Shown here: positions 2,462 through 30,992 of the stretch, piece by piece | Numbering within the stretch: position 1 is the stretch's first letter | Layout of the letters: each line of letters opens with the position of its first letter | Assembly (NCBI GenBank): GCA_964588145.1 | Contig: CAZPNL010000001.1 | Location: 11,306 to 75,305, forward strand | Direction of reading: 5' to 3' | Source: an uncultured Gammaproteobacteria bacterium | GTDB lineage: Bacteria > Patescibacteriota > Microgenomatia > UBA10105 > UBA927 | DNA: 64,000 nt | Position numbers and translations under genes: made by a program | Notes under the pieces: generated by a model | Told to the model about the DNA's origin: nothing | Seen by the model: only the letters and a program-made list of their open reading frames with translations | Databases searched by the model: none

Positions 2462-2506
2462 GTTAGGACAAATATACGGAGTAAAGTTCTCCGTGATTCT
2501 TATATC

Positions 2507-4102: not shown

Positions 4103-4108
4103 TGGGTT

Positions 4109-5962: not shown

Positions 5963-5994
5963 TAAATTCGTTGCTTCGTATATCCACTGTCTAA

Positions 5995-11575: not shown

Positions 11576-13203
11576 ATCTTAGATTGCGACATATAGGAAG
11601 AAACATATTGGCAACACCTCGTAGTCTTTGGCTATTTACTTTTGTTGTCGTTGTTTTGGGGATGACGGGGACACTCGTGGAATGGTTTATGACTCCAGCT
11701 ACTCGAGTATACGGAGGATATCATGGATTTTCCCCTGATTATATAGGGTATGTATCTTATATTAAGCAGGGAAGCGTTGGGGGATGGTATATGACTTTTC
11801 GGTCTTACCCTCTGGATCAACCATTTACTTTTATCCATATTTTTTATACGTTCATGGGAAAAATTGGCGGTGTATTTACATTTTCTGCTCCACTAATCTA
11901 TCATTTGAGTAGAGCCATACTTGGAGTTGTGTTAATTTTTGTGACATACAGGTTTTATAAGATATTTTTGTCACACACAAATGCCATGATTGGTTTAGTA
12001 GGTGCATATGTGTTGACTCCCATAGGGTGGCTTGCTTCACAAAATGGTGTTTGGAATGTGCAACGACTAGCTGTTTTTCCTTTTGCTCAAAATTGGGTGG
12101 AGAGGATTACCACCAGGCCTCATTATATTGCTGGATCCATAGTGTTTATATTAATTTTTGAAGTAGTTCTTCGTATGCCATATAAATCGGGGCTATATAA
12201 AATAGGTGCTGTATTGGCACTTTTAGGAGCAAGCTTAAGTATAATCCACCCATCGTTTGGTATCTTGTGTGCAGTCGTACTTGTTGCGATCCTTAGTTTC
12301 AATACTTTGAGATTGAAAATAAAGCCTATTGTGCAGATGCATATCCTTTTTGGGCTTATTGGTGTGATAGTAGGTTTAGGACTCATATATTGGTCAATAC
12401 TGAGACAACAAGCCTACGGCATAAAGTGGCTTGATGCATATGTGTATACGGATATGTTCAATTTTGAAAGTATTAAAACAACTATATTGGCTATCGGACC
12501 GCTGCTATGGTTTGGATTTATAGGATTGATGTGGTCGATCAGGAAAAAAGATAGTAACTACGTGCATGTATGGCTTTGGATTGTCTTGCAGCTTGTGTTA
12601 TTTGTGTATGGATATAAATTTATCAACTCTGATAGAGTACGTTTTTTACAGGGGTTATATTTTGTTCCACTCGGTTTAGGATTTGCACTTTTTATTGAAA
12701 AGATTCGTCAAATTTTTCATCATCACGTGGCAGCTTTAGCCCTAGCTATTTGCATATTGTTGTCAGTGCCTTGCATTGTAGATGATTTAAAGCGAGGGAT
12801 AGGGGAGTATACGGATTTTGCTGACTTTAGTATTGCGACATTCCCTTCAAGATTTATGTATGACGCATACAAATATCTTAATGATCACTCACCTGTTGAA
12901 AGTGTGGTCATAGCTCGGTGGGAGGCAAGTAGTAATCTCATGCTTTTTAGTCACAATAGAGTGCTAGGAAATACGATCGCGTGGCCTGAAGAAGCAGGAA
13001 AAATTATGGATCACCAAAAAGATATTTTTTTTACAGCAACACTTTCTGAAGAAGATGCGCTAAAATATTTAGATTCTTATAATGTGCAATATATATATTA
13101 TGGATATCAAGAAAAATCATTAGGTGATATATCTCGGTATTCGTTTGTCCATCCAATATTTGAAAATCAAGATGCGACGATTTTTGAGGTAAAACGAAGC
13201 TGA
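11572..13203 (+). CDS. polytopic membrane protein, uncharacterised GT-C-like paralog family (member 3 of 5)
   Basis: Start at ATG 11572 overlaps the upstream stop (ATGA). First loop GFSPDYIGYVSYIKQGSVGGWYMTFRSYP. Conserved C-terminal domain. Confidence 0.55.
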   Translation: MNLRLRHIGRNILATPRSLWLFTFVVVVLGMTGTLVEWFMTPATRVYGGYHGFSPDYIGYVSYIKQGSVGGWYMTFRSYPLDQPFTFIHIFYTFMGKIGGVFTFSAPLIYHLSRAILGVVLIFVTYRFYKIFLSHTNAMIGLVGAYVLTPIGWLASQNGVWNVQRLAVFPFAQNWVERITTRPHYIAGSIVFILIFEVVLRMPYKSGLYKIGAVLALLGASLSIIHPSFGILCAVVLVAILSFNTLRLKIKPIVQMHILFGLIGVIVGLGLIYWSILRQQAYGIKWLDAYVYTDMFNFESIKTTILAIGPLLWFGFIGLMWSIRKKDSNYVHVWLWIVLQLVLFVYGYKFINSDRVRFLQGLYFVPLGLGFALFIEKIRQIFHHHVAALALAICILLSVPCIVDDLKRGIGEYTDFADFSIATFPSRFMYDAYKYLNDHSPVESVVIARWEASSNLMLFSHNRVLGNTIAWPEEAGKIMDHQKDIFFTATLSEEDALKYLDSYNVQYIYYGYQEKSLGDISRYSFVHPIFENQDATIFEVKRS

Positions 13204-13241: not shown

Positions 13242-14231
13242 ATGAAATCTATCGTAACAGGAGGGTTAGGATTTATAGGCGGTCATTTGGTGGAACAGTT
13301 GGCGGCTCTGGGACATATGGTAGTCGCACTAGATTATATTCCTGCTGGTACAAAGAGAAAGATAGACAAGGTAAAACATAAAAATGTTTCCTATCATGAT
13401 GTTGATATTACTAAAGCAGAGCTTATAGATAATCCGATATTTAAAGATGTAGATTGGGTGTTTCATTTGGCTGGGAGAAGCGATATTGTTCCATCTATTA
13501 CTAATCCAGTTGCATATCACGCAGTAAATGTTACGGGTACAGTGCATGTGCTTGAAGCAGCTAGGAAAAATTGCGTCAAGCGTTTTGTCTATGCAGCATC
13601 TTCTTCTTGTTACGGATTTCCGGATGTGTTTCCAACTTCTGAGACAGCGCAAGTAAAGCCAGAGTACCCATATGCGTTGACCAAGTGGATGGGTGAACAG
13701 TATGTGCTCCATTGGGCACGTGTATATAAGCTTCCAACAATCAGTTTACGTTTTTTTAATGTATTTGGTCCCCGCTCACGTGTGTCAGATGATTATGGAC
13801 CAGTGTTTAGTACATTTATCCCACAATTATTAGCTAGCGCTCCATTTACCGTGGTGGGGGATGGGAGTCAGTCGCGTGACTTTACTTTTGTTACAGATGT
13901 TGCAGATGCATGTATTTCGGCTGCATCATCTGATGTGGTAGGTGAGGTGTTTAACGTAGGTAGCGGTGGAACTTATACTATCAATCATCTCGTCAAGTTG
14001 CTGGGTGGTGGGAATGTTGTCAATATGCCTAAGCGGCCTGGTGAACCTGACAAGACGCATGCAGATATAACAAAAATCAAGAAGATGTTGGGTTGGAAGC
14101 CAAAAATAAGTTTTGAAGAAGGTGTCAAAATAGTATTGTCTCAAAAGGAATATTGGAAAAATGCTCCTGTTTGGTCTGCTATCGATATACAAAAAGCAAC
14201 CAAAGATTGGTTCACATATCTTTCTAAATAA
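13242..14231 (+). CDS. NAD-dependent epimerase/dehydratase (extended SDR, GalE/UXS-like)
   Basis: N-terminal Rossmann motif TGGLGFIGGHL. Catalytic YALTK (YxxxK) and ASSSCYG motifs. GGAGG Shine-Dalgarno 9 nt upstream. Confidence 0.75.
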   Translation: MKSIVTGGLGFIGGHLVEQLAALGHMVVALDYIPAGTKRKIDKVKHKNVSYHDVDITKAELIDNPIFKDVDWVFHLAGRSDIVPSITNPVAYHAVNVTGTVHVLEAARKNCVKRFVYAASSSCYGFPDVFPTSETAQVKPEYPYALTKWMGEQYVLHWARVYKLPTISLRFFNVFGPRSRVSDDYGPVFSTFIPQLLASAPFTVVGDGSQSRDFTFVTDVADACISAASSDVVGEVFNVGSGGTYTINHLVKLLGGGNVVNMPKRPGEPDKTHADITKIKKMLGWKPKISFEEGVKIVLSQKEYWKNAPVWSAIDIQKATKDWFTYLSK

Positions 14232-14308
14232 GAATTTAGACATTTAGTTTTGTCTTCAAGTATGAAGTGTGTGTGTTGCTGTTGATTATTGGGAGAAATA
14301 GAATTTAT

Positions 14309-15052
14309 ATGAAATTATACGAACAAACACGTGAGGTCATTTATGATACACAAAATAAAGATCCATTTTTTTGGTATCTGACGCGTAAACTTTTTAGTTC
14401 TGTAGATGTACAGCGCGGCGGCGTTGTGTTAGATCTTGGATGTGGATCCGGAAGGAATACGTTTTATGCAGCTCAATTAGGGCTTACTGCTATAGGTGTG
14501 GATTATATGCAAAAGGCTGTTGAAAATGGTAATGCACATGCAAAGAGCGAGGGTGTTTCAAAACGAGTCAAGTTTGTACGGGCAGATTTAACAAAGCTTC
14601 GACCAAAACAATTTGGACTCGTAGATTATGTGATCCTCAATGAAGTAATTGAGCACATAGAGAATTATCAAAAAATTGTTGATTTTGCCTATGAGAGCTT
14701 AAGACCTGGTGGTAAATTATTGCTCACGACACCAAATGATCCTATATTTTGGACAATTTTAGATGATTATGCGCAGCATGTACGTCGATTTCGTATTTCT
14801 GAAATAGCGAGTGCGTTTCGTCAATTCTCATATGTAGAAATATCGACCGTGGGATTTCCGCTTCATAAACTTGTTATATATTTATATGACAAGTTCTCTG
14901 TGAAAAAGAGAGTGGGGCACAATCCGAAGACATTTCGAAGTAGTTCTATTGTTTCCAAAATGTATTATTTTATCGGTACTATCGTTATGAGTATCGACAA
15001 TTTGTTTCATACTCAAAAAGGTACCACTATTGTAGCGATTGGTACTAAATAG
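14309..15052 (+). CDS. class I SAM-dependent methyltransferase
   Basis: VLDLGCGSGRNTFYAA SAM-binding motif I. Motif-post-I region LLLTTPN. ATG 14309 preferred over the track start 14267 because of the GGGAG SD at 14291. Confidence 0.65.
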   Translation: MKLYEQTREVIYDTQNKDPFFWYLTRKLFSSVDVQRGGVVLDLGCGSGRNTFYAAQLGLTAIGVDYMQKAVENGNAHAKSEGVSKRVKFVRADLTKLRPKQFGLVDYVILNEVIEHIENYQKIVDFAYESLRPGGKLLLTTPNDPIFWTILDDYAQHVRRFRISEIASAFRQFSYVEISTVGFPLHKLVIYLYDKFSVKKRVGHNPKTFRSSSIVSKMYYFIGTIVMSIDNLFHTQKGTTIVAIGTK

Positions 15053-15199
15053 AGAGTATAGATGTTGCTTTTGCATTATTTATATTATCGTATTCAAGTA
15101 TAAATTCATAAAATTTATATGTTCGCAAAAACTTGTAAATCATGTATAGTATTCATAAATCACCTGCCTAAGTTGTCTATACTCGAGTTAAAATATTGG

Positions 15200-15208
15200 T
15201 GATATTAT
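15200..15208 (+). promoter_or_regulatory. extended -10-like element TGaTATTAT 8 nt upstream of ATG (possible leaderless transcript)
   Basis: tgatattat is followed by agattttATG at 15216. No SD is present. Located in a 163-bp AT-rich gap. Confidence 0.2.
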
Positions 15209-15215
15209 AGATTTT

Positions 15216-16754
15216 ATGGGCAGAATGAGTGATACAAAAATTTCAAAAATTAGTGTCCTTGCAAAAACGATTCGCAGGATTAAAAAGGAACACAAGAAGA
15301 TTGTCCTCTGTCATGGAGTTTTTGATCTCATACACCCAGGCCACATACGACATCTACAATCAGCTAAAGAATTTGGTGATATCCTTGTTGTCACAATAAT
15401 CGCAGATAAACATGTAAACAAAGGACCGGGGAGACCAATATTTCATGAAGATTTACGAGCAGAAGTGATTGCATCGCTAGAATTTGTTGATTATGTGGCC
15501 ATTGTTAATAGTGAAACAGCCAAACATGCAATTAATTTGCTTATCCCAGATGTGTATGTAAAAGGTGCGGAACATAAAAATCGGCGGACAAACCCACTTT
15601 CACAACAACAAGAGCTAGATGAAGAAAAAGCTATAAAGGCAGTTGATGGATTAGTTCAATATACAGATGATATTGTATACAGTTCTTCCCATTTAATTAA
15701 TCAATATTTGGCAGTATATCCTACACGGACAAAACAATTTTTAACTCAGTTTCGGAAAAAGTATTCAGATGCATTTGTCATAGAAAAGTTAGCAGCACTT
15801 CGTAAATTATCGGTGCTGGTTATAGGTGATGCGATTATAGATCAATATTATTATTCAAAACCAATGGGCAAGTCGACGAAAGAGCCGATTGCTGTGCACA
15901 AATATTTGTCAGAGGAGTCATTTGCGGGGGGTGCGCTTGCAGCTGCAAACCATGTAAGTGCACTATCTGAAAATGTAACACTTTTGACGCTTTTGGGAAA
16001 GAAAAAATCATTTGAAGGGTTTATACGTAAACATTTGCGTTCAGAAGTATCACCAAAGTTCTTTTATAAAAATAATAGCGGAACCATTATTAAACGTCGT
16101 TTTATAGATGAGCTTACGAAGCAAAAATTATTTCAAATCAGCTATATCAAAGATGAAGATGTGGATGAGAAGTTGGAATCGTCTGTAATAGATTGGTTAA
16201 AAGGCGAACTGCCTAAATATGATGTTGTAATTGTCAACGACTTTGGGCATGGATTTGTGACGAAAAGAATGATTAAGACTATTACAGCACTCGCGAAATT
16301 TTTGGCTGTCAATGTGCAGGCAAATAGTGCAAACTTTGGTTTTAATGTCGTGACCAAATATCCTCGGGCTGATTTTGTCTGTATTGATGATACCGAATTA
16401 CGGTTAGCTATGCACGACAGGTATGGAAATCTAAATTCGCTTGTGAAGCGGATTGGATCTAAATTGAAGTGTAAAGAAATACTCGTTACAAAAGGTCAAC
16501 ATGGATCAGTTGCATATTCAAAAAAGGATGGATATTTGGAAACGCCATCCTTGACTGACAAAGTAGTTGACAGAGTAGGAGCGGGAGATGCATTATTTGC
16601 TATATCATCGCCACTTGTGGCTATGGGGTTTGAGAGAGAGCTCGTAGGATTTGTGGGAAATGTAGCAGGAGCACTTCATGTGCAGACCGTTGGAAACAAG
16701 CGGACTATGCAGTTTGATGAAATGGCCAAATTTATCACGCGATTATTAAAGTGA
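15216..16754 (+). CDS. bifunctional sugar-phosphate nucleotidyltransferase / pfkB-family sugar kinase (HldE/RfaE-like with reversed domain order)
   Basis: The N-terminal 140 aa (CHGVFDLIHPGHIRHLQSAKEFGDILVV...RPIFHEDLRAEVIASLEFVDYV) match the cytidylyltransferase-like RfaE domain II with its HxGH motif. The C-terminal 330 aa (VLVIGDAIIDQYYYSKP ... DRVGAGDALFA) match RfaE domain I heptose-7-P kinase / pfkB kinases. Confidence 0.6.
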   Translation: MGRMSDTKISKISVLAKTIRRIKKEHKKIVLCHGVFDLIHPGHIRHLQSAKEFGDILVVTIIADKHVNKGPGRPIFHEDLRAEVIASLEFVDYVAIVNSETAKHAINLLIPDVYVKGAEHKNRRTNPLSQQQELDEEKAIKAVDGLVQYTDDIVYSSSHLINQYLAVYPTRTKQFLTQFRKKYSDAFVIEKLAALRKLSVLVIGDAIIDQYYYSKPMGKSTKEPIAVHKYLSEESFAGGALAAANHVSALSENVTLLTLLGKKKSFEGFIRKHLRSEVSPKFFYKNNSGTIIKRRFIDELTKQKLFQISYIKDEDVDEKLESSVIDWLKGELPKYDVVIVNDFGHGFVTKRMIKTITALAKFLAVNVQANSANFGFNVVTKYPRADFVCIDDTELRLAMHDRYGNLNSLVKRIGSKLKCKEILVTKGQHGSVAYSKKDGYLETPSLTDKVVDRVGAGDALFAISSPLVAMGFERELVGFVGNVAGALHVQTVGNKRTMQFDEMAKFITRLLK

Positions 16755-16776
16755 TTTAATGAGGAAAGGATATGCT

Positions 16777-17808
16777 ATGAAAAAAACTTCTAAGCAAGGA
16801 GATAAACAAATTCGTCATGTGCTTGTAACAGGTGGTGCAGGATATGTGGGTTCTTCATTAATTCCAAAACTTTTGGATAAGGGCTATGAAGTGACAGTAT
16901 ATGATTTGTATTTGTACGGAAAAGGAGAAGTGGTATTTCCTGCACATGTATCACATAAAAAATTACATCAAGTTCAAGGAGATTTGCGAAACCGAGCACT
17001 ATTGAAACAATCACTTACTGGTGTTGATGCAGTGATCCATTTGGCATGTATATCAAATGATCCAAGTTTTGAGTTGGATCCTGGTTTAGGAAAATCTATC
17101 AATTACGACGCGACTATAGCTCTTATTGATGATGCAAAAGAAGTGGGCGTGCAACGATTTATTTATGCTAGTAGCTCAAGTGTATATGGAGTCAAAGAAG
17201 AAAAGGAAGTGACTGAAGAGCTATCACTTGAGCCACTTACTGATTATTCAAAATTTAAAGCTCTTTGTGAGCCGTATCTTGTAGAAAAAGGTGATGATAT
17301 ATTTACTCCATTGGTACTACGACCAGCAACAGTCTGTGGATATGCACCAAGATTACGGCTTGATTTGACTGTGAATATTTTGACACTGAGTGCATTAGTC
17401 AAACATAAGATAACTGTTCATGGAGGGCAGCAGGAGAGGCCAAATATTCATATAGAGGATATGACAGATGCGTATCTATTTATGCTTGAGCAACCGAAGG
17501 AGAAAATTTTTGGCAAAATCTATAATGTCGGTTTTGACAATATGAAACTCATTGATATAGCAAAAATGGTCAAAAAAGTTATCGGGGACGATAGTATTGA
17601 AATTGAGATCACTCCTACAAATGATTTGCGTTCTTATAGAGTGTCATCCAATAAAGTGGCAAAAGAATTAGGGTTTGTTCCTAATCGTACAGTCGAGGAT
17701 GCTATTTCTGATCTCGTGAAGGCATATAGGGCAGGAAAAATTACTGATGCTTTTCATGATAATAGGTTTTTTAATATAAAAACCATGCAGCAAAAACAGT
17801 TGAAATAA
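16777..17808 (+). CDS. NAD-dependent epimerase/dehydratase (extended SDR)
   Basis: VLVTGGAGYVGSSL motif, YASSSSVYG and YSKFK (YxxxK). ATG 16777 is preferred because the SD GAGGAAAGG sits 7 nt upstream. The track start is 16759. Confidence 0.7.
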   Translation: MKKTSKQGDKQIRHVLVTGGAGYVGSSLIPKLLDKGYEVTVYDLYLYGKGEVVFPAHVSHKKLHQVQGDLRNRALLKQSLTGVDAVIHLACISNDPSFELDPGLGKSINYDATIALIDDAKEVGVQRFIYASSSSVYGVKEEKEVTEELSLEPLTDYSKFKALCEPYLVEKGDDIFTPLVLRPATVCGYAPRLRLDLTVNILTLSALVKHKITVHGGQQERPNIHIEDMTDAYLFMLEQPKEKIFGKIYNVGFDNMKLIDIAKMVKKVIGDDSIEIEITPTNDLRSYRVSSNKVAKELGFVPNRTVEDAISDLVKAYRAGKITDAFHDNRFFNIKTMQQKQLK

Positions 17809-17824
17809 ATTGGCTTAGGTATAC

Positions 17825-18793
17825 ATGACAAATAAAAAATTACGAGATTTATATACAAAACTCCTGTATATACGCAGGGTTGAAGAGCGTATATCGCACG
17901 AATATCAATTTCATGAGATTCGTTGTCCGACACATTTGGCAGTAGGACAAGAAGCGATTGCTGTCGGGATCTGTGACTATCTAAAAACTGAAGATATAGT
18001 TTTTTCTACACACAGGTCACATGCGCACTACTTGGCAAAAGGTGGCGACTTACCAGCGTTTATCGCAGAGCTCTATGGTAAGGCGACAGGATGTGCAAAG
18101 GGATTTGGTGGTTCACAGCATCTCCTTGACCAAAAAGTGAATTTTTGGGGATCCACTCCAATTGTTGCGAGTACTATTCCTGTGGCAGTGGGTGCAGCTT
18201 ATGGCGTTTTTCGGAAAAAAGAAAAGAAAGTAGTTGTGGTGTTTTTTGGTGATGCGGCTACTGAGGAAGGGGTATTTGCGGAAAGTGTGAATTTTGCAGC
18301 ACTCCATGCTCTTCCTGTCATATTTGTCTGTGAAAACAATAGATATTCAACTAACACTCCCATACGGGAAAGACAAATTGATCGGTTCATATTTCCTGTT
18401 GCGCAGGCGCTTGGTGCCAAGGCATTTCACTCTGATGGAAATGATATTGCAAAAGTACGTACCATAGCGAAAAAAGTAGTCAGTAATGCTCGAAGTGGCA
18501 AGGGGCCGCAATTTGTAGAGTTTGAAACATATCGTACCTTGCAACACTGCGGACCCAAGGAAGACCCTCCGGGTTACCGGTCAGAAGGTGAGAAAGAGCA
18601 GTGGAAAAGGAGAGATCCTCTTCTCTTGGCGCAAAAAATGATGAAACAGCAGGGGATGAAGGTTACTGATGAGATTTCAACTATTGAAAAAGACGTACAA
18701 CAATTAGTAGATGCTGCATTTATATTTGCCAAAGAAAGTGCATTGTCTCGTGTTGAGTTAACTGAAGAGTTAATGTATGCAAGTAGGCAATAG
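17825..18793 (+). CDS. thiamine-diphosphate-dependent dehydrogenase E1 component alpha subunit (PDH/acetoin-DH E1-alpha-like)
   Basis: HLAVGQEAIAVG and the ThDP motif FFGDAATEEGVFAESVNFAALHALPVIFVCENNRYS. Confidence 0.75.
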   Translation: MTNKKLRDLYTKLLYIRRVEERISHEYQFHEIRCPTHLAVGQEAIAVGICDYLKTEDIVFSTHRSHAHYLAKGGDLPAFIAELYGKATGCAKGFGGSQHLLDQKVNFWGSTPIVASTIPVAVGAAYGVFRKKEKKVVVVFFGDAATEEGVFAESVNFAALHALPVIFVCENNRYSTNTPIRERQIDRFIFPVAQALGAKAFHSDGNDIAKVRTIAKKVVSNARSGKGPQFVEFETYRTLQHCGPKEDPPGYRSEGEKEQWKRRDPLLLAQKMMKQQGMKVTDEISTIEKDVQQLVDAAFIFAKESALSRVELTEELMYASRQ

Positions 18794-18796
18794 GCT

Positions 18797-19897
18797 ATGA
18801 AAAATACCACACAAAAATTTGATGGAAAAACATGTGAAATGACATACGCAGATGCTATACGTGATGCACTTGATATAGCGCTTGCTCGGGATCCTCTTAC
18901 GTTTGCTATAGGTGAGGGAATTCCTGACCCTAAAGGAGCTTTTGGTACGACTACGGGACTGGCTGCTAAGCATGGTCCTTATCGCATCATGGATATGCCA
19001 GTAAGTGAAAATGGACTTACTGGAGTTGCTATAGGAGCCGCACTTGCGGGTATGCGGCCGATACTCACACACATGCGGATAGATTTTGCATTGCTATCAC
19101 TTGATCAAATTATTAATAATGCTGCCAAATGGTATTACATGTATGGGGGTCAAGTATCAGTGCCAATAGTCATACGGATGATTATTGGTCGCGGATGGGG
19201 TCAAGGGCCACAGCATTCACAGAGTTTGCAGGTGTTATTTGCTCACATTCCTGGTCTAAAGGTCGTGATGCCCGCAACTGCATCTGACGCAAAGGGATTG
19301 TTACTTTCAGCTATAGCCGATCCCAATCCTGTGATTTATATAGAGCACCGGTGGCTTCATAAAGTAACTGGACCTGTGCTCTCTGGATATGTTGAAACAC
19401 CTATTGGATCTGCACGAGTTATAGAAAAAGGCACTGATGTAACTATTGTGTCATCATCATACATGACAGTGGAGTGCTTGAAGGCGCATGGAATTCTCAA
19501 AAAGGCTGGAATACGTGCGGAAGTTGTAGATTTGCGATCGATCAAGCCAATTGACTGGACTACCCTAGAGGCGTCAGTGGGGAAAACGAAGCGACTACTT
19601 GTTGCTGATACGGGACACACGTCGTTTGGTGTATCTGCTGAAATACTCGCACATGTGGCAGAAAAAGGGATATCACTATTGGCTCCACCTGTACGTGTAG
19701 CATCACCAGATTTACCCGTGCCTACTGCTAAACAACTGGCTGAGGCATATTATCCAACTGCAAAAACAATAGTACTTAAAACGCTCCAATTGATGGGCTT
19801 GAGAAAAGAGCAGATAGATGGCATCATATGTGATATAAAAGATACGCCCAATGTGAGCTCAGATCAGCCTGACCCTACATTTACCGGGCCATTTTAA
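18797..19897 (+). CDS. thiamine-diphosphate-dependent dehydrogenase E1 component beta subunit
   Basis: MTYADAIRDALDIALARDPLTFAIGEGIP...RIMDMPVSENGLTGVAIGAALAGMRPI is a transketolase-like pyrimidine-binding domain with a C-terminal domain. No E2/E3 partner lies nearby. Confidence 0.75.
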   Translation: MKNTTQKFDGKTCEMTYADAIRDALDIALARDPLTFAIGEGIPDPKGAFGTTTGLAAKHGPYRIMDMPVSENGLTGVAIGAALAGMRPILTHMRIDFALLSLDQIINNAAKWYYMYGGQVSVPIVIRMIIGRGWGQGPQHSQSLQVLFAHIPGLKVVMPATASDAKGLLLSAIADPNPVIYIEHRWLHKVTGPVLSGYVETPIGSARVIEKGTDVTIVSSSYMTVECLKAHGILKKAGIRAEVVDLRSIKPIDWTTLEASVGKTKRLLVADTGHTSFGVSAEILAHVAEKGISLLAPPVRVASPDLPVPTAKQLAEAYYPTAKTIVLKTLQLMGLRKEQIDGIICDIKDTPNVSSDQPDPTFTGPF

Positions 19898-19903
19898 AAA
19901 TAT

Positions 19904-21109
19904 ATGGATTACAGTGTCATACCGTTTTCACAAAAAAGCACATGTTCTGTGTGTGGTGCCAAGCTTGGACGTACACTTATTGATTTACCACGACTTCCAC
20001 TGACTGAAATATTTGTCAAAAAAAAGCAGCCAAAGGGGATGGGGTTTGTAGATCAGCAGTTTTATGTTTGCGATACGTGTCATCATGGACAATTAGGCAC
20101 CATCGTCGATCCAAAATTTTTATACAATTCTGATGCCTATTTTTTCCGCACCGGAGAGAGTAAGACTGCTCCTGCCGCCAATGATTTTTTCCTCAATTTC
20201 ATCATGTCTCATGTACGCAGTGGCAGAATTGGCACCATCATTGATGTTGGATGTAGTGATCTGTATTTACTCAATGCTCTCCGTGGAAAAGCCAAGCGGT
20301 TAGTAGGAATTGATCCAGTGCTTAAAGGGCGAGAGGAAGAGCTGTCTGATGATCAGATGACGGTCATTGGTGATTTTCTCGAAAATATAGATATGACCAA
20401 GTACATGGGTGATGATACGCTTGTCATCAGTAGTCATACGATGGAGCATATAAAGGATCCGTCTAGTGTCATATCGCAGCTATTTGATGTAGCGACTGAT
20501 AAAACACAATTTATGTTTCAGTTTCCCAGTCTTGAACCGGTCCTGACAGACCGACGATTTGATCAGATTTTTCATCAGCATCTGCAGCTCTATTCTAAAG
20601 ATTCGTTTACGTATTTAGTTGAAAATCATGGAGGAGAGGTGGTAGATACAACTGTAAATTATTTTCATTGGGGCGCACTCCTCGTATCATTTCGTAAAAG
20701 TGCAAAGAAGTCTAAGCCTATAAAGATTTCTACTAACTCGCTCTTTGATCGTAGTAATATATTGGAAAGTTATGGTGATTATAAAGCTCGCATGTCTGTG
20801 GCAAATAGATATATTCAGTCTCTTTCGAATGAAAAAGTGTATGGATTTGGAGCAACACTCATGCTTCCTATATTGGCCTATCACTTAGGTAATGATTTGT
20901 CATCGTTTGAATCAATACTGGACGATGACCAGAGTAAGCATGGACATTTTTATCTTAATCTCCCAGTGGCGATAGCAAGTCCCGAGAGTGTTCGGGCTAT
21001 GGATGAGGCTACGGTGGTTGTGACTGCATACAATACTGCGAGATCTGTGATGCCGCGCGTCTTGCATCTGCGCCCCAAACGAATCGTTCTGCCTATGCAG
21101 ATGATGTAA
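19904..21109 (+). CDS. NDP-sugar C-methyltransferase-like (TylC3/NovU-like: Zn-ribbon + SAM MTase + C-terminal C-methyltransferase domain)
   Basis: N-terminal Cys4 zinc ribbon (CSVCGAKLG ... CDTCHHGQ), then a SAM fold (IIDVGCSDLYL), then a ~150-aa C-terminal domain. This architecture is typical of sugar C-3/C-5 methyltransferases. Confidence 0.6.
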   Translation: MDYSVIPFSQKSTCSVCGAKLGRTLIDLPRLPLTEIFVKKKQPKGMGFVDQQFYVCDTCHHGQLGTIVDPKFLYNSDAYFFRTGESKTAPAANDFFLNFIMSHVRSGRIGTIIDVGCSDLYLLNALRGKAKRLVGIDPVLKGREEELSDDQMTVIGDFLENIDMTKYMGDDTLVISSHTMEHIKDPSSVISQLFDVATDKTQFMFQFPSLEPVLTDRRFDQIFHQHLQLYSKDSFTYLVENHGGEVVDTTVNYFHWGALLVSFRKSAKKSKPIKISTNSLFDRSNILESYGDYKARMSVANRYIQSLSNEKVYGFGATLMLPILAYHLGNDLSSFESILDDDQSKHGHFYLNLPVAIASPESVRAMDEATVVVTAYNTARSVMPRVLHLRPKRIVLPMQMM

Positions 21110-21261
21110 GGCAATGGTAAATGGTAAAGGGAAAAAGGGAAATTTTTTACATAGTATTCCAGAAGTAGAGTTGGTTATATTATGTTATTGCGTGGCCTAG
21201 CTGTAGTGGAGCGAGTAGGTAATCTAAAAAAGCCATTTTATTGTTTGTAATAATGATTATT

Positions 21262-21294
21262 ATATTGTGAATTTGATATAGGATATTGTGAATT
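21262..21294. promoter_or_regulatory. 12-bp direct repeat atattgtgaatt x2, spaced 21 bp (two helical turns), immediately upstream of SDR gene start
   Basis: atattgtgaatt at 21262-21273 and at 21283-21294. The ATG is at 21306. Inside a 196-bp intergenic gap within an otherwise compact same-strand gene array. Confidence 0.35.
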
Positions 21295-21305
21295 GAACTT
21301 ACTGT

Positions 21306-22088
21306 ATGGACTTTAAGATACAAGGGAAAAAAGCACTTATTACTGGAGCAGGGCGGGGGCTGGGTGCATCCATCGTAGAGCATTTAGTGGCCGAAGGGGT
21401 ACATGTGGCAATTGTGTCTAGAGGTAAAGCTGCTCTTAAGGAATTGTTTGCATCTATAGGAGGAGCAAAAGCAGGGCATATCATGATGGCAGAGGACATG
21501 ACTGCCGAGGGTGTGCCTGTGAAAGTGTGTAAAGAGATTCAAAAAAAGTTTGGGTCTCCTGACATCATTGTAAATAATTTAGGAGATACGCTAGATATCA
21601 GAGATCCATATTGCACGATAGATGATTGGCGTAGGGTATTTCGTATCAATTTAGAAGTAGGGATTGAAATAAACAATTTTTTCATACCTGCCATGCAAAA
21701 AAACCAGTGGGGGAGGATTGTGCACATTACCTCTATTGCAGCTCTTGAAAATCAAGGCCCCGTGCCGTACTGTGCCGTAAAAGCAGCTGTGACAAGTTAT
21801 GTACGCAGTATGGGTCGGATACTTTCACCTGACAACATCATCATGACATCGGTACTTCCTGGAGCTGTGATGACAAAGGGTGGATATTGGGATATAGCCA
21901 GTGTTACTAAAAAAGATCATGTAAAGAAATATCTGGATGAGCGAATGGCTATTAAGCGCTTTGGGTCACCTGAAGAGATAGGATCTGTCGTCGCATTTTT
22001 GTGCTCCGAACATAGTTCATTTATGGTAGGATCGATGGTGCCTGTAGATGGTGGGCAGGGGAGAGTATTTTTTCGTCAAGATGTGTAA
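21306..22088 (+). CDS. short-chain dehydrogenase/reductase (classical SDR)
   Basis: KKALITGAGRGLGASI glycine-rich motif. YCAVKAA matches the YxxxK catalytic motif. Confidence 0.7.
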   Translation: MDFKIQGKKALITGAGRGLGASIVEHLVAEGVHVAIVSRGKAALKELFASIGGAKAGHIMMAEDMTAEGVPVKVCKEIQKKFGSPDIIVNNLGDTLDIRDPYCTIDDWRRVFRINLEVGIEINNFFIPAMQKNQWGRIVHITSIAALENQGPVPYCAVKAAVTSYVRSMGRILSPDNIIMTSVLPGAVMTKGGYWDIASVTKKDHVKKYLDERMAIKRFGSPEEIGSVVAFLCSEHSSFMVGSMVPVDGGQGRVFFRQDV

Positions 22089-22093
22089 TTTTT

Positions 22094-22903
22094 ATGAATA
22101 TTTCGAAATCAAGTTTTGATATAACCAAAAATAACCGTTTGCGCTATCAGATCGCTGAGATAGTCTATAACGCTCAAGATGGTCATATCCCAAGTGCTTA
22201 CTCCATCGTTGAAATACTTTCTGTACTTTTTGGATCGTTTCTTCGGTATGATGCCAATAATCCCAAATGGAATGAGCGTGATTTTTTTATCCTAAGTAAG
22301 GGTCACGGAAGTGTGGCTTTATATTTGATGCTTGAGAAATATGGATTTATTACAAAAAAAGACTTGGATAAAAAAGGTACGCTTCAGGGTATACTTGGTG
22401 GACATCCGGATAGAACTCGTATCCCTGGTATAGAGGCATCTACAGGGTCACTGGGGCATGGTTTTCCTATGAGTGTGGGGTTAGCATTAGGTCTCCGAAT
22501 ACAAAAACGAAATAATCGGGTTATCACAATTATAGGAGATGGAGAAAGTAATGAAGGAACCATATGGGAATCAGCTCTTTTGGCAGCACATCATATGCTT
22601 GGCAATTTGCTTGTGATTGTGGATAAAAATAAATCAACAGATGCACTGTTGTCCATCCCTGAAATGGCTAAAAAGTGGGATGCGTTTGGTTGGGAAGCAT
22701 ATGAGGTGGATGGGCATAACCAAGAAGAGTTTGCGCAGTTGCTTAATCAGTTGAAGTTTAACGATATGCGAAAACCGAAAGTAATAGTAGCACATACGAT
22801 TAAAGGAAAAGGTGTGTCATTTATTGAAAATGTAGGTTCTTGGCATTCGAAAGTCCCTAGCGCGGAAGAGTTAGATTTGATAAGGAAAGAGCTTAGAGTT
22901 TAG
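22094..22903 (+). CDS. transketolase, N-terminal (ThDP-binding) subunit
   Basis: HIPSAYSIVEIL...ILSKGHGSVALY...GSLGHGFPMSVGLALG...IGDGESNEGTIWE matches split-transketolase N-terminal sections. Confidence 0.75.
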   Translation: MNISKSSFDITKNNRLRYQIAEIVYNAQDGHIPSAYSIVEILSVLFGSFLRYDANNPKWNERDFFILSKGHGSVALYLMLEKYGFITKKDLDKKGTLQGILGGHPDRTRIPGIEASTGSLGHGFPMSVGLALGLRIQKRNNRVITIIGDGESNEGTIWESALLAAHHMLGNLLVIVDKNKSTDALLSIPEMAKKWDAFGWEAYEVDGHNQEEFAQLLNQLKFNDMRKPKVIVAHTIKGKGVSFIENVGSWHSKVPSAEELDLIRKELRV

Positions 22904-23107
22904 ATTGCGTCAGACATCACGCGTTAGGCGTCACACCAACTGAAGTATGATTTTGTCATTGCGAGGAATTGCATAGTTTTTAGCGAAGATGACGTGGCAA
23001 TCTTTTCAGGTTTCGAGTTTTGGAAGTTGAAAGTAACAATTGAACAATATAATAATTTAGCAATTTAGCTCAATTTCGACAAGGTTAATGGGGCAAGCAA
23101 TTTATTT

Positions 23108-24040
23108 ATGAGTGCATACGGAAATATACGACAAGCTTTTGCAGATACTGTATTGGAAGTTGGGAAAATTGACCCAAAACTTGTGGTGCTTGTCAGTGAT
23201 ATCACGCATTTTAAGCTTCAACCATTTGCACGGGCATGTCCAGGTAGATATTACAATTTGGGTGTTTGTGAGCAATCCATTCTATCAATGTCAGCTGGTA
23301 TGGCTATGCTTGGGTTGTATCCGGTGGTGCATACCATTACCCCGTTTCTCATTGAGCGTGGATATGAGCAAATTAAAGACGATTTTGGATATCAAAAGTT
23401 ACCTGTAAATATAATTACCGTCGGATCTTCTTTTGATTATGCACAGCTTGGTACGACACATCACTCATACGGTGATTTTGCACTGATGAAGACGATTGAA
23501 AATATGCAAATACTGTATCCTTCTACAACTCTTGAATTTAATGAACTGTTTAAGCAGTCATATAGCAATAAGATGCCAACTTATACGCGTATTCCTGGGG
23601 CTGAGCATGCAGAAATATTTCCAAAATCAAAAATAAAGTTAGGCAAGGGAATTCTTGTACGGCCAGGGAAAAAGGTAACCATTGTTGCTGTAGGAGTGCA
23701 GCTGAAGACTGTCATGGACGCCTTGAATTCGCTTTTACGGTTAAAAATAAATCCTGAGATTATTTATATACATACAGTACGACCACTGGATAGTCACATG
23801 ATCATAGAGAGCGTGAAGCGGACAAAACACTGCTTAGTTATTGAGGAACATTCTGCATATGGGGGCGTATCTGACGATGTCCTTAGAATAACGCGAAATA
23901 TGGGAAATATTCGCCATGCAAGTATCAATATTGGAGACAAATTTATTCATCATTATGGTACGTATGAGCAGATCTGTGAGCTACTTGGATTTACTCTAAA
24001 AAATGTGGTTGATACTGTCAAAAAACTTATTGAATTCTAA
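23108..24040 (+). CDS. transketolase, C-terminal (pyrimidine-binding + C-terminal domain) subunit
   Basis: Transketolase C-section architecture. Separated from the N-subunit gene by an atypical 204-bp spacer. Confidence 0.7.
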   Translation: MSAYGNIRQAFADTVLEVGKIDPKLVVLVSDITHFKLQPFARACPGRYYNLGVCEQSILSMSAGMAMLGLYPVVHTITPFLIERGYEQIKDDFGYQKLPVNIITVGSSFDYAQLGTTHHSYGDFALMKTIENMQILYPSTTLEFNELFKQSYSNKMPTYTRIPGAEHAEIFPKSKIKLGKGILVRPGKKVTIVAVGVQLKTVMDALNSLLRLKINPEIIYIHTVRPLDSHMIIESVKRTKHCLVIEEHSAYGGVSDDVLRITRNMGNIRHASINIGDKFIHHYGTYEQICELLGFTLKNVVDTVKKLIEF

Positions 24041-24043
24041 TGA

Positions 24044-26710
24044 TTATTCTTCGTGGACTCCCGCGTAAAATGCTCCTATTGGAATGAGTACTGCAGCTAT
24101 CATGGCTACAAACAACCCGAAACGTAATAGAGGATTTGGCCAGTATTCCAATGTTATGTGATGATTTCCTTTACCTATTGGGATACCCATAAATGCCTGA
24201 TTGACCTGATATATTAGTTGGTTATTTCCATCAAGAGTTAGTTTCCATTTTGTGTCGTAGGGATAATGAAAAACCAGCCAGCCACTGTTTGGTGCAGTAA
24301 ATGTAAAGGCAAATGTATCTGAGTTGTACTTTTGTATAGACTCGATATATGTCATGAAATTTTTTCTATAAGAAAATTTTAAGGTAGTGGGGAGTTGAGT
24401 ATCTGCGGGGAGCGCTATGGTAAGAGTTTGGGTTTGAATATTTCCTACGTCAAATGTTTGCGGAATAGAGAGGTTTCCTTGTGCTGGGGAATATTTTGTA
24501 TCTGTTGAAACGAGCGTAATTATATCTCGATCTCCTTCTATGAGGCTACTTGCTAGATAGTTGGGAAATGTATCCGGTAGGAGAATACTGCAAAGAATGA
24601 ATTCAGATTGAATTTTTGAATTTTCAGTATTGCAAATAACTGAAGAGGTATCAAAGGAGTCGACAATATTTTCTTTTGGTAACAAATTATTTATAGATTG
24701 GATGGAAGAAAAATAATTTGGGGCGGTTGATGGTATTTGTCCATCTACTGTGATTATCGAACGGTTTTGCTTGGTGGTGTTAATTGTATCGAATGCTTCA
24801 GGAGTGTAGGGAACTGCTGCTTGTGCAAAATATACGAGTCGATTGTCGTTTTGATTGAGATATGTTTGAAGTGAGGGATTTGAGAGTGCTTTATATGTAA
24901 TATGTTTTGTATAGTAGGGGTTGCCAGGAATTTCTAGTTGATCAAAATCTACGTAATGATAGTAGAACGTTTGTCCTTTTCTAGAATTATTTGTTGCTCC
25001 ATATGTGGGAATAAGTGTAATTTTTTGGGTGTTGTAATATTGCCGAAATGGGATGATTCCAGGGTTTTGAAAATCAACGATTGCTGGAGAAGTGTTTGGT
25101 GAAAAGATAAAGGGTTGCACTTGAAGATTTGTCATATCCACGTTCATAAATCGTTGTGCCCCAGCAAAGTCAATTGTATACATGAGGCATAGTATGGCAA
25201 CATATATTTTCTTTTTTGTTACGTAAGTGGGTATAGAGATATTTTTTATTATGAAAACCATGCTTATTAAAGTGATTTGAATCAATACGTACTTTTGTAC
25301 AAGCACATTCACATTAAGATAAGAATAGATTGAGTAAAAGCCAATAGTTAGTGTTATCAATATGTATTTAATAAGATATATTTTTGTTTTTTCTTGGTGT
25401 TGAAATATAGCTTTAATACCCAAAGAGATTGGAACCACTATTAAAAATGGGAGCATATGAGCAGCTCCTTTCATATCACGAACGATCAGATTGAAGGGAT
25501 TTGTGATTGCGTTTATCCAGTGGGGAATAGCTGTGAGTCCAAATGCTTCCCTTGGGCTATTGAGAAGCCATACAAATACAAGTGTGCCGATGATAATATA
25601 TCTTTTTGATCCTTTGCTCAAAATGGCGCCAATGCCAGCTAACAATATGCTAGTAAATCCGATGTAATGCCATGTGATGGTATTCCACCATTTTTGGCTA
25701 GGTCCATTGTCAAAATCTATGAGTCCAAATGATGTATCTGGTTTGAAATAGTCACCCACGCCGACACGGAAAAAATATGCATATGGATTAATGATACTTT
25801 GGAGATTTGAAAATCTGTTGGGTTCATCGCCAAAGTCGTAGTCTTTGTAAGAAGTAAGCAAATACATAAGGGGAGCAAGCATAAGTAGACAGAGGATCAA
25901 TGTGAGAAGTATTTTTGGAGTTATGTTTCGTATATAAAGTTTGAGATATTGTCGTTTAAAAATTTTTATTTCTTTGTAGTTTTTTATGATAAACCACACC
26001 AGCGTACAAAGTATAAAAATATGGATGCTTTGGTAGAAATATCCTAACGCAATAATCGGATATCCAATGATAGCGGCAGTCATGAGAAAGATAAAGATAT
26101 TAAGATATTTTATATTTTTGGTTTCAGCAAATTTGAGTATAAAGTGGACAACCATGGGATACATGCTGTACACAAACGCTGGTTCTGTGCCGTAGGCGAT
26201 ATAAAACGTTGGTATGAGGATAGTATTTCCTAACACCATCATCAGGAGTGTAATAAGAGTATTTTTTGTCCATCGCCCAATATGCAAATAAATGCCTGCA
26301 GAGCGCATAAACATTGAAGGTATGTGGTAGCAAATAGAGTAGATAATATACCAACCGCGAGCTTGATCAGACAATAGATGATGGAAGAACATATAGATAA
26401 AAGCTGTGAGTGTGTGATTGGGTTGAAAGTATCCTGCCCCGAGCACAAAGTACGTGTTAGGCATCTGTGCGTATGGATCCCAAAGTGCTATACCAGCCTG
26501 GAGGAGGTTTGAGAGGAGGTTAAACACTTGAAAAAATACAAATTCCTCATCTCCACTTTTTGAAAAACTGAAGGTAAAAAATAGAAACCTATCTGGCATG
26601 ATAAAACACATAAGAGTGTATGTGATGAGTACTGATATGAAGACAAGGAATGTCGCATTCAGGTATTTTTTGTAGTGAAATAAATGAATATATGTGTTTA
26701 TACTGTGCAT
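24044..26710 (-). CDS. YfhO-family-like large membrane glycosyltransferase (880-aa subtype)
   Basis: 888 aa and polytopic. C-terminal WLVFHYPYDTKWKLTLDGNNQLIYQVNQAFMGIPIGKGNHHITLEYWP is a YfhO-type signature. Paralog of 31864..34503. Confidence 0.55.
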   Translation of the reverse strand: MHSINTYIHLFHYKKYLNATFLVFISVLITYTLMCFIMPDRFLFFTFSFSKSGDEEFVFFQVFNLLSNLLQAGIALWDPYAQMPNTYFVLGAGYFQPNHTLTAFIYMFFHHLLSDQARGWYIIYSICYHIPSMFMRSAGIYLHIGRWTKNTLITLLMMVLGNTILIPTFYIAYGTEPAFVYSMYPMVVHFILKFAETKNIKYLNIFIFLMTAAIIGYPIIALGYFYQSIHIFILCTLVWFIIKNYKEIKIFKRQYLKLYIRNITPKILLTLILCLLMLAPLMYLLTSYKDYDFGDEPNRFSNLQSIINPYAYFFRVGVGDYFKPDTSFGLIDFDNGPSQKWWNTITWHYIGFTSILLAGIGAILSKGSKRYIIIGTLVFVWLLNSPREAFGLTAIPHWINAITNPFNLIVRDMKGAAHMLPFLIVVPISLGIKAIFQHQEKTKIYLIKYILITLTIGFYSIYSYLNVNVLVQKYVLIQITLISMVFIIKNISIPTYVTKKKIYVAILCLMYTIDFAGAQRFMNVDMTNLQVQPFIFSPNTSPAIVDFQNPGIIPFRQYYNTQKITLIPTYGATNNSRKGQTFYYHYVDFDQLEIPGNPYYTKHITYKALSNPSLQTYLNQNDNRLVYFAQAAVPYTPEAFDTINTTKQNRSIITVDGQIPSTAPNYFSSIQSINNLLPKENIVDSFDTSSVICNTENSKIQSEFILCSILLPDTFPNYLASSLIEGDRDIITLVSTDTKYSPAQGNLSIPQTFDVGNIQTQTLTIALPADTQLPTTLKFSYRKNFMTYIESIQKYNSDTFAFTFTAPNSGWLVFHYPYDTKWKLTLDGNNQLIYQVNQAFMGIPIGKGNHHITLEYWPNPLLRFGLFVAMIAAVLIPIGAFYAGVHEE

Positions 26711-27780: not shown

Positions 27781-27793
27781 TTATTTCAATTTC

Positions 27794-27833
27794 CGAATTA
27801 TAAAATTCGCTTCTTGTGGACTGCCTCATGAGG
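27794..27833 (+). terminator. two palindromes (cgaatt-ataa-aattcg; cctcatgagg) followed by T-rich tract downstream of GT9-like gene
   Basis: 6-bp stem and 4-nt loop at 27794-27809. A 10-bp perfect palindrome at 27824-27833, then ggtattttatcg. Confidence 0.25.
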
Positions 27834-27900
27834 TGGTATTTTATCGTATGATATATAAGTTAACTATTAATTTCATTATCGTAAAAATGAAAGGGGCTAT

Positions 27901-28587: not shown

Positions 28588-28589
28588 AT

Positions 28590-29387: not shown

Positions 29388-29408
29388 AGTAATACTTAAA
29401 TTTTATTA

Positions 29409-30212: not shown

Positions 30213-30253
30213 GTATAGACAATACTGCTTAAATTTGCATATAGTACAAAGCT

Positions 30254-30982: not shown

Positions 30983-30992
30983 ATATTTATAA

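Follow-up and report, generated by a model that had tools for sequence, protein, structure and literature searches.

The 64,000-nucleotide stretch of contig CAZPNL010000001.1 (GenBank assembly GCA_964588145.1) analysed here, referred to as the window, carries ten co-directional open reading frames (ORFs) on the + strand that together span exactly positions 13242-24040. They encode, in order, an extended short-chain dehydrogenase/reductase (SDR), a class I S-adenosylmethionine (SAM) methyltransferase, a nucleotidyltransferase-kinase fusion, a second extended SDR, the alpha and beta subunits of a thiamine diphosphate (ThDP)-dependent E1 enzyme, a zinc-ribbon C-methyltransferase, a classical SDR, and the N and C subunits of a split transketolase (Table 1). 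When coordinates and domains were rechecked, with Pfam matches counted above gathering cut-offs, they agreed with the gene content given in an initial annotation. The tight packing described there was also borne out, as six of the nine intergenic gaps measure 3–35 nt and the other three 163, 196, and 204 nt. It is fairly likely, judging from sequence and gene context, that this array lies at the heart of a nucleotide-sugar pathway leading to a carbon-branched, C-methylated sugar, probably heptose-derived, for a cell-surface glycan. The unusual branched or C-methylated nucleotide sugar that the initial annotation had predicted is thus supported by the E1 clade, the conserved partner genes, the transketolase residues, the C-methyltransferase domains, the loci found around C-methyltransferase relatives, and literature precedent.

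Enzymes of the array

The E1 pair is related to pyruvate dehydrogenase (PDH), with scores under the PDH equivalog cut-offs of NCBIfam (281 vs 394 bits for TIGR03182 and 301 vs 321 bits for NF006667). The ThDP motif GDAATEEG...CENN is intact in E1 alpha, and His241 aligns with the catalytic-loop His of E2-linked E1s. No lipoyl, 2-oxoacid_dh or Pyr_redox protein, i.e. no E2 or E3 component, was found among the 53 large ORFs scanned in the window. A protein search returned thousands of E1 homologues, the best of which are 50–59% identical and come from uncultured organisms; four genomic contexts were read directly, and in these the pair is embedded among sugar genes. For a wider view, 84 E1-anchored loci were collected and their neighbours within ±8 kb clustered, while a one-genome-per-species scan gave 80 loci (40–52% identity). 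The two E1 subunits are adjacent in 80 of the 84 loci, and E2 and E3 are absent from the neighbour clusters of all 84. The lack of these components stated in the initial annotation is thus shared by the related loci. In six plasmid reference operons (Enterococcus and Paracoccus acetoin dehydrogenases, Staphylococcus epidermidis, Rhizobium sp. B21/90, Burkholderia pdhA, and a Rhizobium branched-chain 2-oxoacid dehydrogenase, BCKDH), E2 lies directly downstream of E1 beta without exception.

A neighbour-joining (NJ) tree was built from 85 E1 alpha sequences with 200 bootstraps; the six E2-linked references were included and the named AviB1 and Plm8 left out. The window E1 alpha and two Streptomyces E1 alphas share a clade that excludes all six E2-linked E1s in 195 of 200 bootstraps, and the window pair thus groups away from genuine dehydrogenases, as the initial annotation had presumed. 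Both Streptomyces homologues sit among genes for NDP-hexose 2,3-dehydratase, 3,5-epimerase, and EryCIII-type glycosyltransferases, a neighbourhood like that of the sugar-branching E1 pairs of antibiotic clusters. The window E1 alpha is 43–45% identical to the Streptomyces orphan E1s vs 32–37% to the E2-linked E1s, and the orphan clade, in which the ThDP motif and the loop histidine persist, is distinguished from the E2-linked references by the signature P35/Q42/E147. These observations support the assignment of the pair to the E2-less, sugar-branching "alpha-KADH2" type, with a predicted transfer of a two-carbon unit to a keto-sugar nucleotide. The E1 beta tail extends about 40 residues (326–366) past Transketolase_C, and the median length of orphan-clade E1 beta is 353 aa vs 324–346 aa in the E2-linked enzymes. 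On the Streptomyces griseofuscus plasmid pSGRIFU1 (L088, 8998-11044), an E2-less E1 pair of 45% identity adjoins a condensation-domain protein, an acyl carrier protein (ACP), and a phosphopantetheinyl transferase (PPTase). It is probable that the clade also includes enzymes with a carrier-protein or polyketide role.

Recurrent neighbours of the E1 pair across the 84 loci, besides E1 beta itself, include extended SDRs, the nucleotidyltransferase-kinase fusion, DegT aminotransferases, GmhA-like SIS isomerases, methyltransferases, RfbF-like nucleotidyltransferases, Zn-dependent alcohol dehydrogenases, GT2 glycosyltransferases, YerE/ALS-like enzymes, radical-SAM proteins, and the C-methyltransferase. 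Three of them stand out: a homologue of the second extended SDR (46 loci), the fusion (41 loci), and the GmhA-like SIS gene (33 loci). The initial annotation had stressed an orphan E1 next to a C-methyltransferase. The two are indeed adjacent here, but the conserved partners of E1 are the fusion and the second SDR. The fusion is HldE-like with the domain order reversed, the nucleotidyltransferase being N-terminal and the PfkB kinase C-terminal. It scores 108 bits against rfaE_dom_II and 132 bits against rfaE_dom_I, both under the equivalog cut-offs, and 175 vs 521 bits for NF008454. By order and score it is HldE-related and not an HldE equivalog; the closest solved relative of its kinase part is the D-beta-D-heptose 7-phosphate kinase 4e84.

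The second extended SDR, labelled a second epimerase in the initial annotation, retains its place in the extended SDR family but most resembles a nucleotide-heptose C4-dehydrogenase. Its best PDB matches are 6vo6 and 6vo8, with 160 bits vs 90 bits for the next match. The identity of 6vo6 with Cj1427 was confirmed by its C-terminus (...LRAFKMMKVN), as the reverse complement of the published primer Cj1427cF918 translates to RAFKMMKV. Cj1427 is a C4-dehydrogenase acting on GDP-D-glycero-D-manno-heptose (PMC10680097). Homologues of the window SDR in the E1-anchored loci have a median identity of 46% and precede E1 alpha directly more often than any other identified gene. It is therefore proposed that this SDR is of the nucleotide-heptose C4-dehydrogenase type, which works with tightly bound NAD(H), and would form a keto group. 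The HldE-like fusion, together with the GmhA-like gene of the relatives, points to a nucleotide-activated heptose that would be oxidised and then branched by E1, and a C4-oxidised, activated heptose is the probable substrate. A literature search combining heptose and E1 found no relevant paper.

The C-methyltransferase was described in the initial annotation as TylC3-like, and this description stands. It carries PF08421 (43.7 bits, cut-off 31.3), PF13489 (46.9 bits), and a partial match to PF08484 (25.4 bits, cut-off 23.5). Its closest solved relatives are the mycarose (4rv9) and TcaB9 sugar 3-C-methyltransferases, at a low similarity of 70 bits. The zinc cysteines CSVC...CDTC are present and are kept in seven of eight orthologues compared, L030 being without most of them. 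The active-site residues of TcaB9, known from mutational work, are His181, Tyr222, Glu224, and His225. Both histidines are kept, whereas every clade member has Phe at position 222, and the window enzyme, like many of the others, has Gln at position 224. On sequence, it is a member of a distinct TylC3/TcaB9-related subfamily with the motif FD(Q/A)(V/I)FH(Q/E)H. A metagenome scan with the pattern [FY]D[QA][VI]FH[QE]H returned 80 C-methyltransferase-anchored loci.

Both subunits of the split transketolase are present as first annotated, but the enzyme is not a canonical one. The closest solved protein to each is the active split transketolase of Carboxydothermus hydrogenoformans (6yak, 215 bits, for the N subunit; 6yaj, 155 bits, for the C subunit). 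In an alignment with this enzyme and E. coli TktA (E. coli numbering), the cofactor and donor residues His26, His66, His100, GDG, His261, Glu411, and His473 are kept. Transketolases typically have His at position 100, where DXS has Phe. Canonical transketolases bind the acceptor phosphate and hydroxyl through Arg358, Ser385, His461, Asp469, and Arg520. Arg358 alone is kept; the other four, all intact in TktA and the C. hydrogenoformans enzyme, are replaced here as well as in four or five orthologues. The window holds another split transketolase pair (40590-42642), 43% and 30% identical to the first, which has the same donor residues and the same remodelled acceptor site. By its residues, then, the split transketolase is non-canonical, with the donor site kept and the acceptor pocket rebuilt, and is no pentose-phosphate enzyme. 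Between its two genes lies a 204-nt non-coding gap (22903-23108), which yielded no ORF, repeat or RNA family; the orthologous genes in L019 and L032 overlap by 4 nt. Pairs of the second type adjoin E1 alpha/beta in L017, L104, and L136, and in the Pelagibacter metagenome-assembled genome (MAG) of L017 the order E1 alpha, E1 beta, second-type transketolase, epimerase, and APH-like kinase is contiguous.

Gene context supplies a further indication of what the transketolase does. Among 42 C-methyltransferase loci with at least 4 kb of downstream DNA, 36 carry the counterpart of the array's classical SDR plus a ThDP enzyme, which is a split transketolase in 29 and a YerE/ALS-like enzyme in 7. One or the other is present in all 31 loci of at least 12 kb (the long loci below). 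Orthologues of the classical SDR of the array (45–61% identity) occur in 30 of these 31 and always adjoin the downstream ThDP enzyme. This exchange of transketolase and YerE-like enzyme beside the same SDR mirrors the YerE/YerF pair, which argues that the transketolase adds a two-carbon unit to a keto sugar. By the same analogy, the SDR is proposed to be a YerF-like ketoreductase of the new branch.

Conserved gene set and glycan island

The same genes, mostly in the same order, recur in dozens of unrelated genome and metagenome contigs, and the arrangement is therefore not due to chance. The genomes of the E1 relatives are labelled as Omnitrophota, Verrucomicrobia, Cyanobacteria, Chlamydiae, Planctomycetes, Proteobacteria, and candidate phyla. 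The conserved set comprises about 17 genes. Its usual order starts with SIS, a 4,6-dehydratase-like SDR, the nucleotidyltransferase-kinase fusion, the Cj1427-like SDR, a methyltransferase, E1 alpha, and E1 beta. It continues with the C-methyltransferase, a methyltransferase, an SDR, the two transketolase subunits (or a YerE-like enzyme in their place), a TylF-like methyltransferase, a protein of no known family, two SDRs, and a Zn-dependent alcohol dehydrogenase. Orthologues of the set occupy 26800-31745 and 40590-44564 in the window. The array at 13242-24040 was thus rightly recognised, but the pathway runs on beyond 24040. In the window it is broken up by other glycosyltransferase genes and by an oppositely oriented YfhO-type gene (24044-26710).

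Table 1. Genes of the array and of the conserved set in the window
Feature	Position	Strand	Basis
Extended SDR, GalE/WbpP-like nucleotide-sugar epimerase or oxidoreductase	13242-14231	+	Pfam Epimerase/GDP_Man_Dehyd
Class I SAM methyltransferase	14267-15052	+	Pfam
CTP_transf_like (residues 32-123) + PfkB (199-493) fusion	15216-16754	+	Pfam
Extended SDR, Cj1427-like	16759-17808	+	Pfam Epimerase; PDB match
E1 alpha subunit, ThDP-dependent	17825-18793	+	Pfam E1_dh (PF00676), 216 bits
E1 beta subunit	18797-19897	+	Transket_pyr (PF02779), 108 bits; Transketolase_C (PF02780), 102 bits
Zn-ribbon SAM C-methyltransferase	19904-21109	+	PF08421, PF13489, PF08484
Classical SDR	21306-22088	+	Pfam adh_short
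Split transketolase, N subunit (PP domain)	22094-22903	+	Pfam Transketolase_N
Split transketolase, C subunit (Pyr + TK-C)	23108-24040	+	Transket_pyr + Transketolase_C
Conserved protein of no Pfam family, tentative GT-B fold	26800-27780	+	Position downstream of the transketolase pair in many loci
Class I methyltransferase, conserved set	27901-28587	+	Pfam
Classical SDR, conserved set	28584-29387	+	Pfam
Classical SDR, conserved set	29409-30212	+	Pfam
TylF-like sugar O-methyltransferase, conserved set	30993-31745	-	Pfam
Second split transketolase pair	40590-41432 and 41644-42642	+	Pfam
Class I methyltransferase, conserved set	42662-43324	+	Pfam
Zn-dependent alcohol dehydrogenase, conserved set	43518-44564	+	Pfam

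Orthologues of the methyltransferase at 27901-28587 (51–64% identity) lie between the C-methyltransferase and the SDR, or after the transketolase, in many loci. Those of the SDR at 28584-29387 (38–55% identity) follow the gene of no known family, and the SDR at 29409-30212 co-occurs with them. Homologues of the TylF-like enzyme (29–42% identity) are found between the C-methyltransferase, SDR, and transketolase genes in several loci. The methyltransferase at 42662-43324 has its homologue directly upstream of E1 alpha in most related loci; it is present in 29 of the 84 E1-anchored and 25 of the 31 long loci, and the Zn-dependent alcohol dehydrogenase in 19 and 20, respectively. As for the first two genes of the array, orthologues of the extended SDR (50–59% identity) adjoin the fusion in about 25 related loci. 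This SDR has the SSS...YxxxK motif, is missing the dehydratase D/E pair, and is closest among solved structures to UDP-glucose and UDP-GlcNAc 4-epimerases (168–144 bits). The methyltransferase that follows it has a homologue in only 1 of the 80 metagenome loci and is window-specific, outside the conserved set.

The gene at 26800-27780 encodes a 326-aa protein that is found 3' of the transketolase pair in many loci and has 548 representatives in a library clustered at 50% identity, with the near-invariant motifs "VHLKN" and "GMASGP". It has no Pfam match, and a profile search against the PDB gave only an insignificant match to POFUT1 (E = 0.3). Its AlphaFold model is of low confidence (pLDDT 62). 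In a fold search against solved structures, the matches with E <= 0.001 were UDP-GlcNAc 2-epimerases and most of the weaker ones other GT-B folds (heptosyltransferase II, GT9, TagF), all at low TM-scores. On the strength of this model, the protein may be a dedicated transferase for the pathway, belonging to an undescribed glycosyltransferase family.

The window as a whole is a glycan island with at least ten large membrane proteins of the YfhO/PMT_2 type and five small GT2 enzymes, as well as TylF-like and other methyltransferases, additional SDRs, and the second transketolase pair. The large membrane proteins (460–890 aa) are unusually dense, at 764-13203, 24044-26710, 31864-34503, 46766-48475, 50577-55301, 56325-60784, and 61690-63240; they show weak YfhO or PMT_2 (GT-C-like) matches, several being without a Pfam match, and small GT2 enzymes lie in between. 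Glycosylation outside the membrane that depends on polyprenyl-phosphate sugars would fit this pattern, and loci of candidate-phyla and DPANN MAGs, such as the Woesearchaeota locus L006, look similar. Three successive large ORFs overlap by 55 and 85 nt (7266-9431, 9377-11575, and 11491-13203), two of them beginning at TTG, and the start codons called for them mechanically probably lie upstream of the true ones. A second sugar-tailoring block at 38880-46304 contains an APH-like kinase (567 aa), the second transketolase pair, two methyltransferases, the Zn-dependent alcohol dehydrogenase, and an extended SDR. Scans of the whole window gave no Rfam match, hence no TPP riboswitch or other known RNA, and no tRNA. 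The counts of promoter and terminator sites equal those of shuffled sequence; therefore, operon structure is inferred from spacing and co-orientation alone.

Related loci hold some further variations. In the Woesearchaeota MAG, a 764-aa fusion (L006, 2761-5055) joins a PF08421/PF08484 C-methyltransferase to an extended-SDR epimerase/dehydratase domain, and the same locus encodes another C-methyltransferase along with an E1 pair, an SDR, and a YerE-like enzyme. Genes for B12-binding radical-SAM and SPASM radical-SAM proteins adjoin the E1 pair in some loci (L032, 12030-13520; L031, 5481-6587; and about ten others). Their recurrence hints at more unusual carbon chemistry on the same sugar.

Proposed pathway and competing explanations

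A route can be outlined in which every step follows from homology and gene context. The HldE-like fusion would phosphorylate the anomeric position of a sugar phosphate and attach a nucleotide; in many relatives, a GmhA-like isomerase would supply heptose 7-phosphate. The Cj1427-like SDR would then turn a ring hydroxyl, by analogy the one at C4, into a ketone in an oxidation that involves no dehydration. Subsequently, E1 alpha/beta would decarboxylate pyruvate on ThDP and add the two-carbon unit to this ketone, giving a tertiary alcohol with a C-acetyl branch, a reaction described for AviB1/B2, Plm8/9, and KbDH-alpha/beta. A separable module of C-methyltransferase, SDR, and split transketolase would act either before or after the E1 step. 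In this module, the transketolase would transfer a hydroxyacetyl or similar two-carbon unit to a second carbonyl, the SDR would reduce the new branch ketone (the YerE/YerF logic), and the C-methyltransferase would methylate a carbon adjacent to a keto group. The downstream methyltransferases, SDRs, and Zn-dependent alcohol dehydrogenase would finish the sugar by O-methylation and reduction. Finally, the small GT2 enzymes and large GT-C-type membrane proteins of the island would install it in the surface glycan.

Several points weigh against this reading. The fusion scores under the HldE equivalog cut-offs, and tblastn with the SIS and HAD proteins of L002 found no GmhA or GmhB in the window; because of this, heptose is inferred and not demonstrated for the locus. 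Moreover, most relatives possess a 4,6-dehydratase-like SDR that is missing from the window. The E1 tree is an NJ tree with just six E2-linked references, and a strict split of all orphan from all E2-linked E1s is recovered in only 114 of 200 bootstraps. The peptide synthetase and ACP context of the pSGRIFU1 homologue means that clade membership does not fix the acceptor. The replacement of Tyr222, and often of Glu224, suggests that the chemistry of the C-methyltransferase clade may differ from that of TcaB9. Additionally, outside actinomycetes the functions of these enzyme clades are assigned from homology and gene context alone.

The main rival, in itself rather unlikely, holds that two independent sugars are made. 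The module of fusion, SDR, and E1 would yield one branched heptose-type sugar and that of C-methyltransferase, SDR, and transketolase another, the two being neighbours because they serve a shared glycan. It gains from the 13 of 44 C-methyltransferase loci with enough upstream DNA that have no E1, from the C-methyltransferase being present in only about 10 of the 84 E1-anchored loci, and from RfbF-like nucleotidyltransferases and 4,6-dehydratase-like SDRs in related loci. However, the window and most long loci have the two modules side by side, with the fixed order E1 alpha, E1 beta, C-methyltransferase, (methyltransferase), SDR, transketolase. No second activation enzyme lies between them, and E1 is present in 24 of the 31 long loci. 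An improbable alternative places the carbon chemistry before activation, with the transketolase making sedoheptulose 7-phosphate or another ketose phosphate and E1 a 1-deoxy-ketose phosphate from pyruvate, DXS-like, followed by reduction, phosphorylation, and nucleotidylation. The near-equal scores of the transketolase C subunit against DXS and transketolase models would suit it, as would the kinase and nucleotidyltransferase and the SIS isomerases frequent in relatives. However, the transketolase has lost three of four phosphate-binding residues as well as Asp469, which argues against sugar-phosphate acceptors, and keeps His100 instead of the DXS-typical Phe. In related loci it is exchanged for a YerE-like enzyme, a type acting on CDP-keto sugars. 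Furthermore, the E1 clade includes antibiotic deoxysugar E1s acting on NDP-sugars, and the adjacent SDR resembles a nucleotide-sugar enzyme.

The two remaining alternatives deny any branching role to the E1 pair. That it and the transketolase are ordinary enzymes of central metabolism (PDH or acetoin dehydrogenase and the pentose-phosphate pathway), merely lying inside a glycan island with E2 and E3 elsewhere in the genome, is very improbable. The best NCBIfam and PDB matches are indeed PDH E1 subunits and a genuine split transketolase, and the absence of E2 and E3 from this genome is known for the window only. However, a genuine PDH or acetoin dehydrogenase E1 was rejected on the sub-cut-off scores, the separate clade in the tree, and the lack of E2 or E3 near any of the 84 pairs; in the reference operons for acetoin dehydrogenase, PDH, and BCKDH, E2 adjoins E1. 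In addition, the acceptor site of the transketolase is rebuilt, and synteny with sugar-tailoring genes is kept across phyla. Least probable of all, and only barely credible, is that the pair makes a two-carbon acyl group for a carrier protein or for glycan O-acylation, in the manner of nonribosomal peptide or polyketide synthesis, without a C-C branch. The neighbours of the pSGRIFU1 homologue would accord with this, but no carrier protein, acyltransferase or E2-like gene occurs in the window or among recurrent neighbours, and the tightest neighbour of E1 is the keto-forming SDR. A phosphonate pathway was also considered and dismissed, as the window contains no phosphoenolpyruvate mutase and no PF02775/PF02776 decarboxylase.

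The branched, C-methylated nucleotide sugar thus remains the favoured product. A more far-reaching version, possible at somewhat less than even confidence, is that a widespread pathway of about 17 genes makes a doubly C-branched, C-methylated higher-carbon sugar through two successive ThDP carboligations on a nucleotide-activated heptose, by the E1 pair and then by the rebuilt split transketolase, for the surface glycans of many uncultured phyla. E1-type branching, YerE-type branching of lipopolysaccharide sugars, TylC3/TcaB9 C-methylation, and Cj1427 C4 oxidation are already known, and split-transketolase branching has already been proposed. What appears to be new is that these enzymes are combined in one conserved pathway, that the substrate is apparently of the heptose type, that the transketolase has a rebuilt acceptor site and can be exchanged with YerE-like enzymes, and that the genes occur in surface-glycan loci of many non-actinomycete phyla. 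If the more far-reaching version is true, it would provide the first case beyond Streptomyces of sugar branching by a transketolase-type enzyme, and the first of a heptose branched by an E1-type enzyme. If the favoured reading holds, many phyla would use chemistry of actinomycete secondary metabolism in the routine synthesis of their cell-envelope glycans. The reading offers the product of a Cj1427-like C4-dehydrogenase as a substrate that can be tested, supplies a sequence signature by which non-canonical transketolases may be recognised, and points to uncharacterised sugars on uncultured microbes. It would also add to the known ThDP carboligases with tertiary alcohols as products, providing candidates for biocatalysis.

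Comparison with known systems

E1-type, YerE-type, and split-transketolase branching of keto sugars were reviewed in 2025 (PMC12247030). There, the E1 and split-transketolase types are treated as actinomycete secondary metabolism, with about 120 clusters containing E1-type enzymes and 13 predicted split transketolases, which all come from Streptomycetes and of which not one had been characterised in vitro. Pyruvate-derived two-carbon transfer to a keto sugar has been described for actinomycete E1 pairs (PMC12247030; PMC4802897, which covers Plm8/9). The alpha-KADH2 pairs of avilamycin (AviB1/AviB2), paulomycin (Plm8/Plm9), aldgamycin (AlmDI/DII), and kibdelomycin (KbDH-alpha/beta) are, like the window pair, two-subunit E1 enzymes without E2 or E3 among nucleotide-sugar genes. 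The window E1 alpha is 43% identical to, and in the same clade as, E1 alphas of Streptomyces deoxysugar clusters, the named AviB1, Plm8, and KbDH not being among them. However, the window pair belongs to a surface-glycan island and not to a secondary-metabolite cluster. Its partners are an HldE-like fusion and a Cj1427-like SDR instead of the dTDP-glucose 4,6-dehydratase/2,3-dehydratase set, and its family is spread over many non-actinomycete phyla.

The likeness to Cj1427 of the Campylobacter jejuni capsule lies in C4 oxidation without dehydration, which yields the type of ketone that a carboligase needs. In C. jejuni, however, the 4-keto heptose is epimerised and re-reduced, unbranched, and activation proceeds through a GHMP kinase and an NTP_transferase to a GDP-linked sugar, whereas the window has a fusion of PfkB and cytidylyltransferase-like domains. 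With the TylC3, TcaB9, and mycarose enzymes, the window C-methyltransferase shares the Cys4 zinc ribbon, the class I SAM domain, the C-terminal PF08484 region, and His181 and His225. It departs from TcaB9 in its low score of 70 bits, the change of Tyr222 to Phe, and the frequent Gln at position 224.

YerE is a ThDP flavoenzyme that branches CDP-3,6-dideoxy-4-keto-glucose, and YerF is the ketoreductase of the branch; the product is yersiniose A (PMC12247030). The resemblance consists in a carboligase and a reductase within an O-antigen-type locus, and 7 of the 42 related loci have an ALS/YerE-like enzyme in the transketolase position. No YerE-type enzyme is encoded in the window, where the ThDP enzymes are members of the E1 and transketolase superfamilies. 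Closest to its transketolase in arrangement are the split transketolases of the miharamycin and amipurimycin clusters, for which hydroxyacetylation of a keto sugar has been proposed and which also consist of separate N and C subunits beside sugar-tailoring genes. The donor site of the window enzyme is of the true transketolase type, with His100 kept, and is consistent with the glycolaldehyde-type transfer proposed for them. By description, the window clade differs from these enzymes in being environmental, spread over several phyla, without S385, H461, D469, and R520, and exchangeable with YerE-like enzymes.

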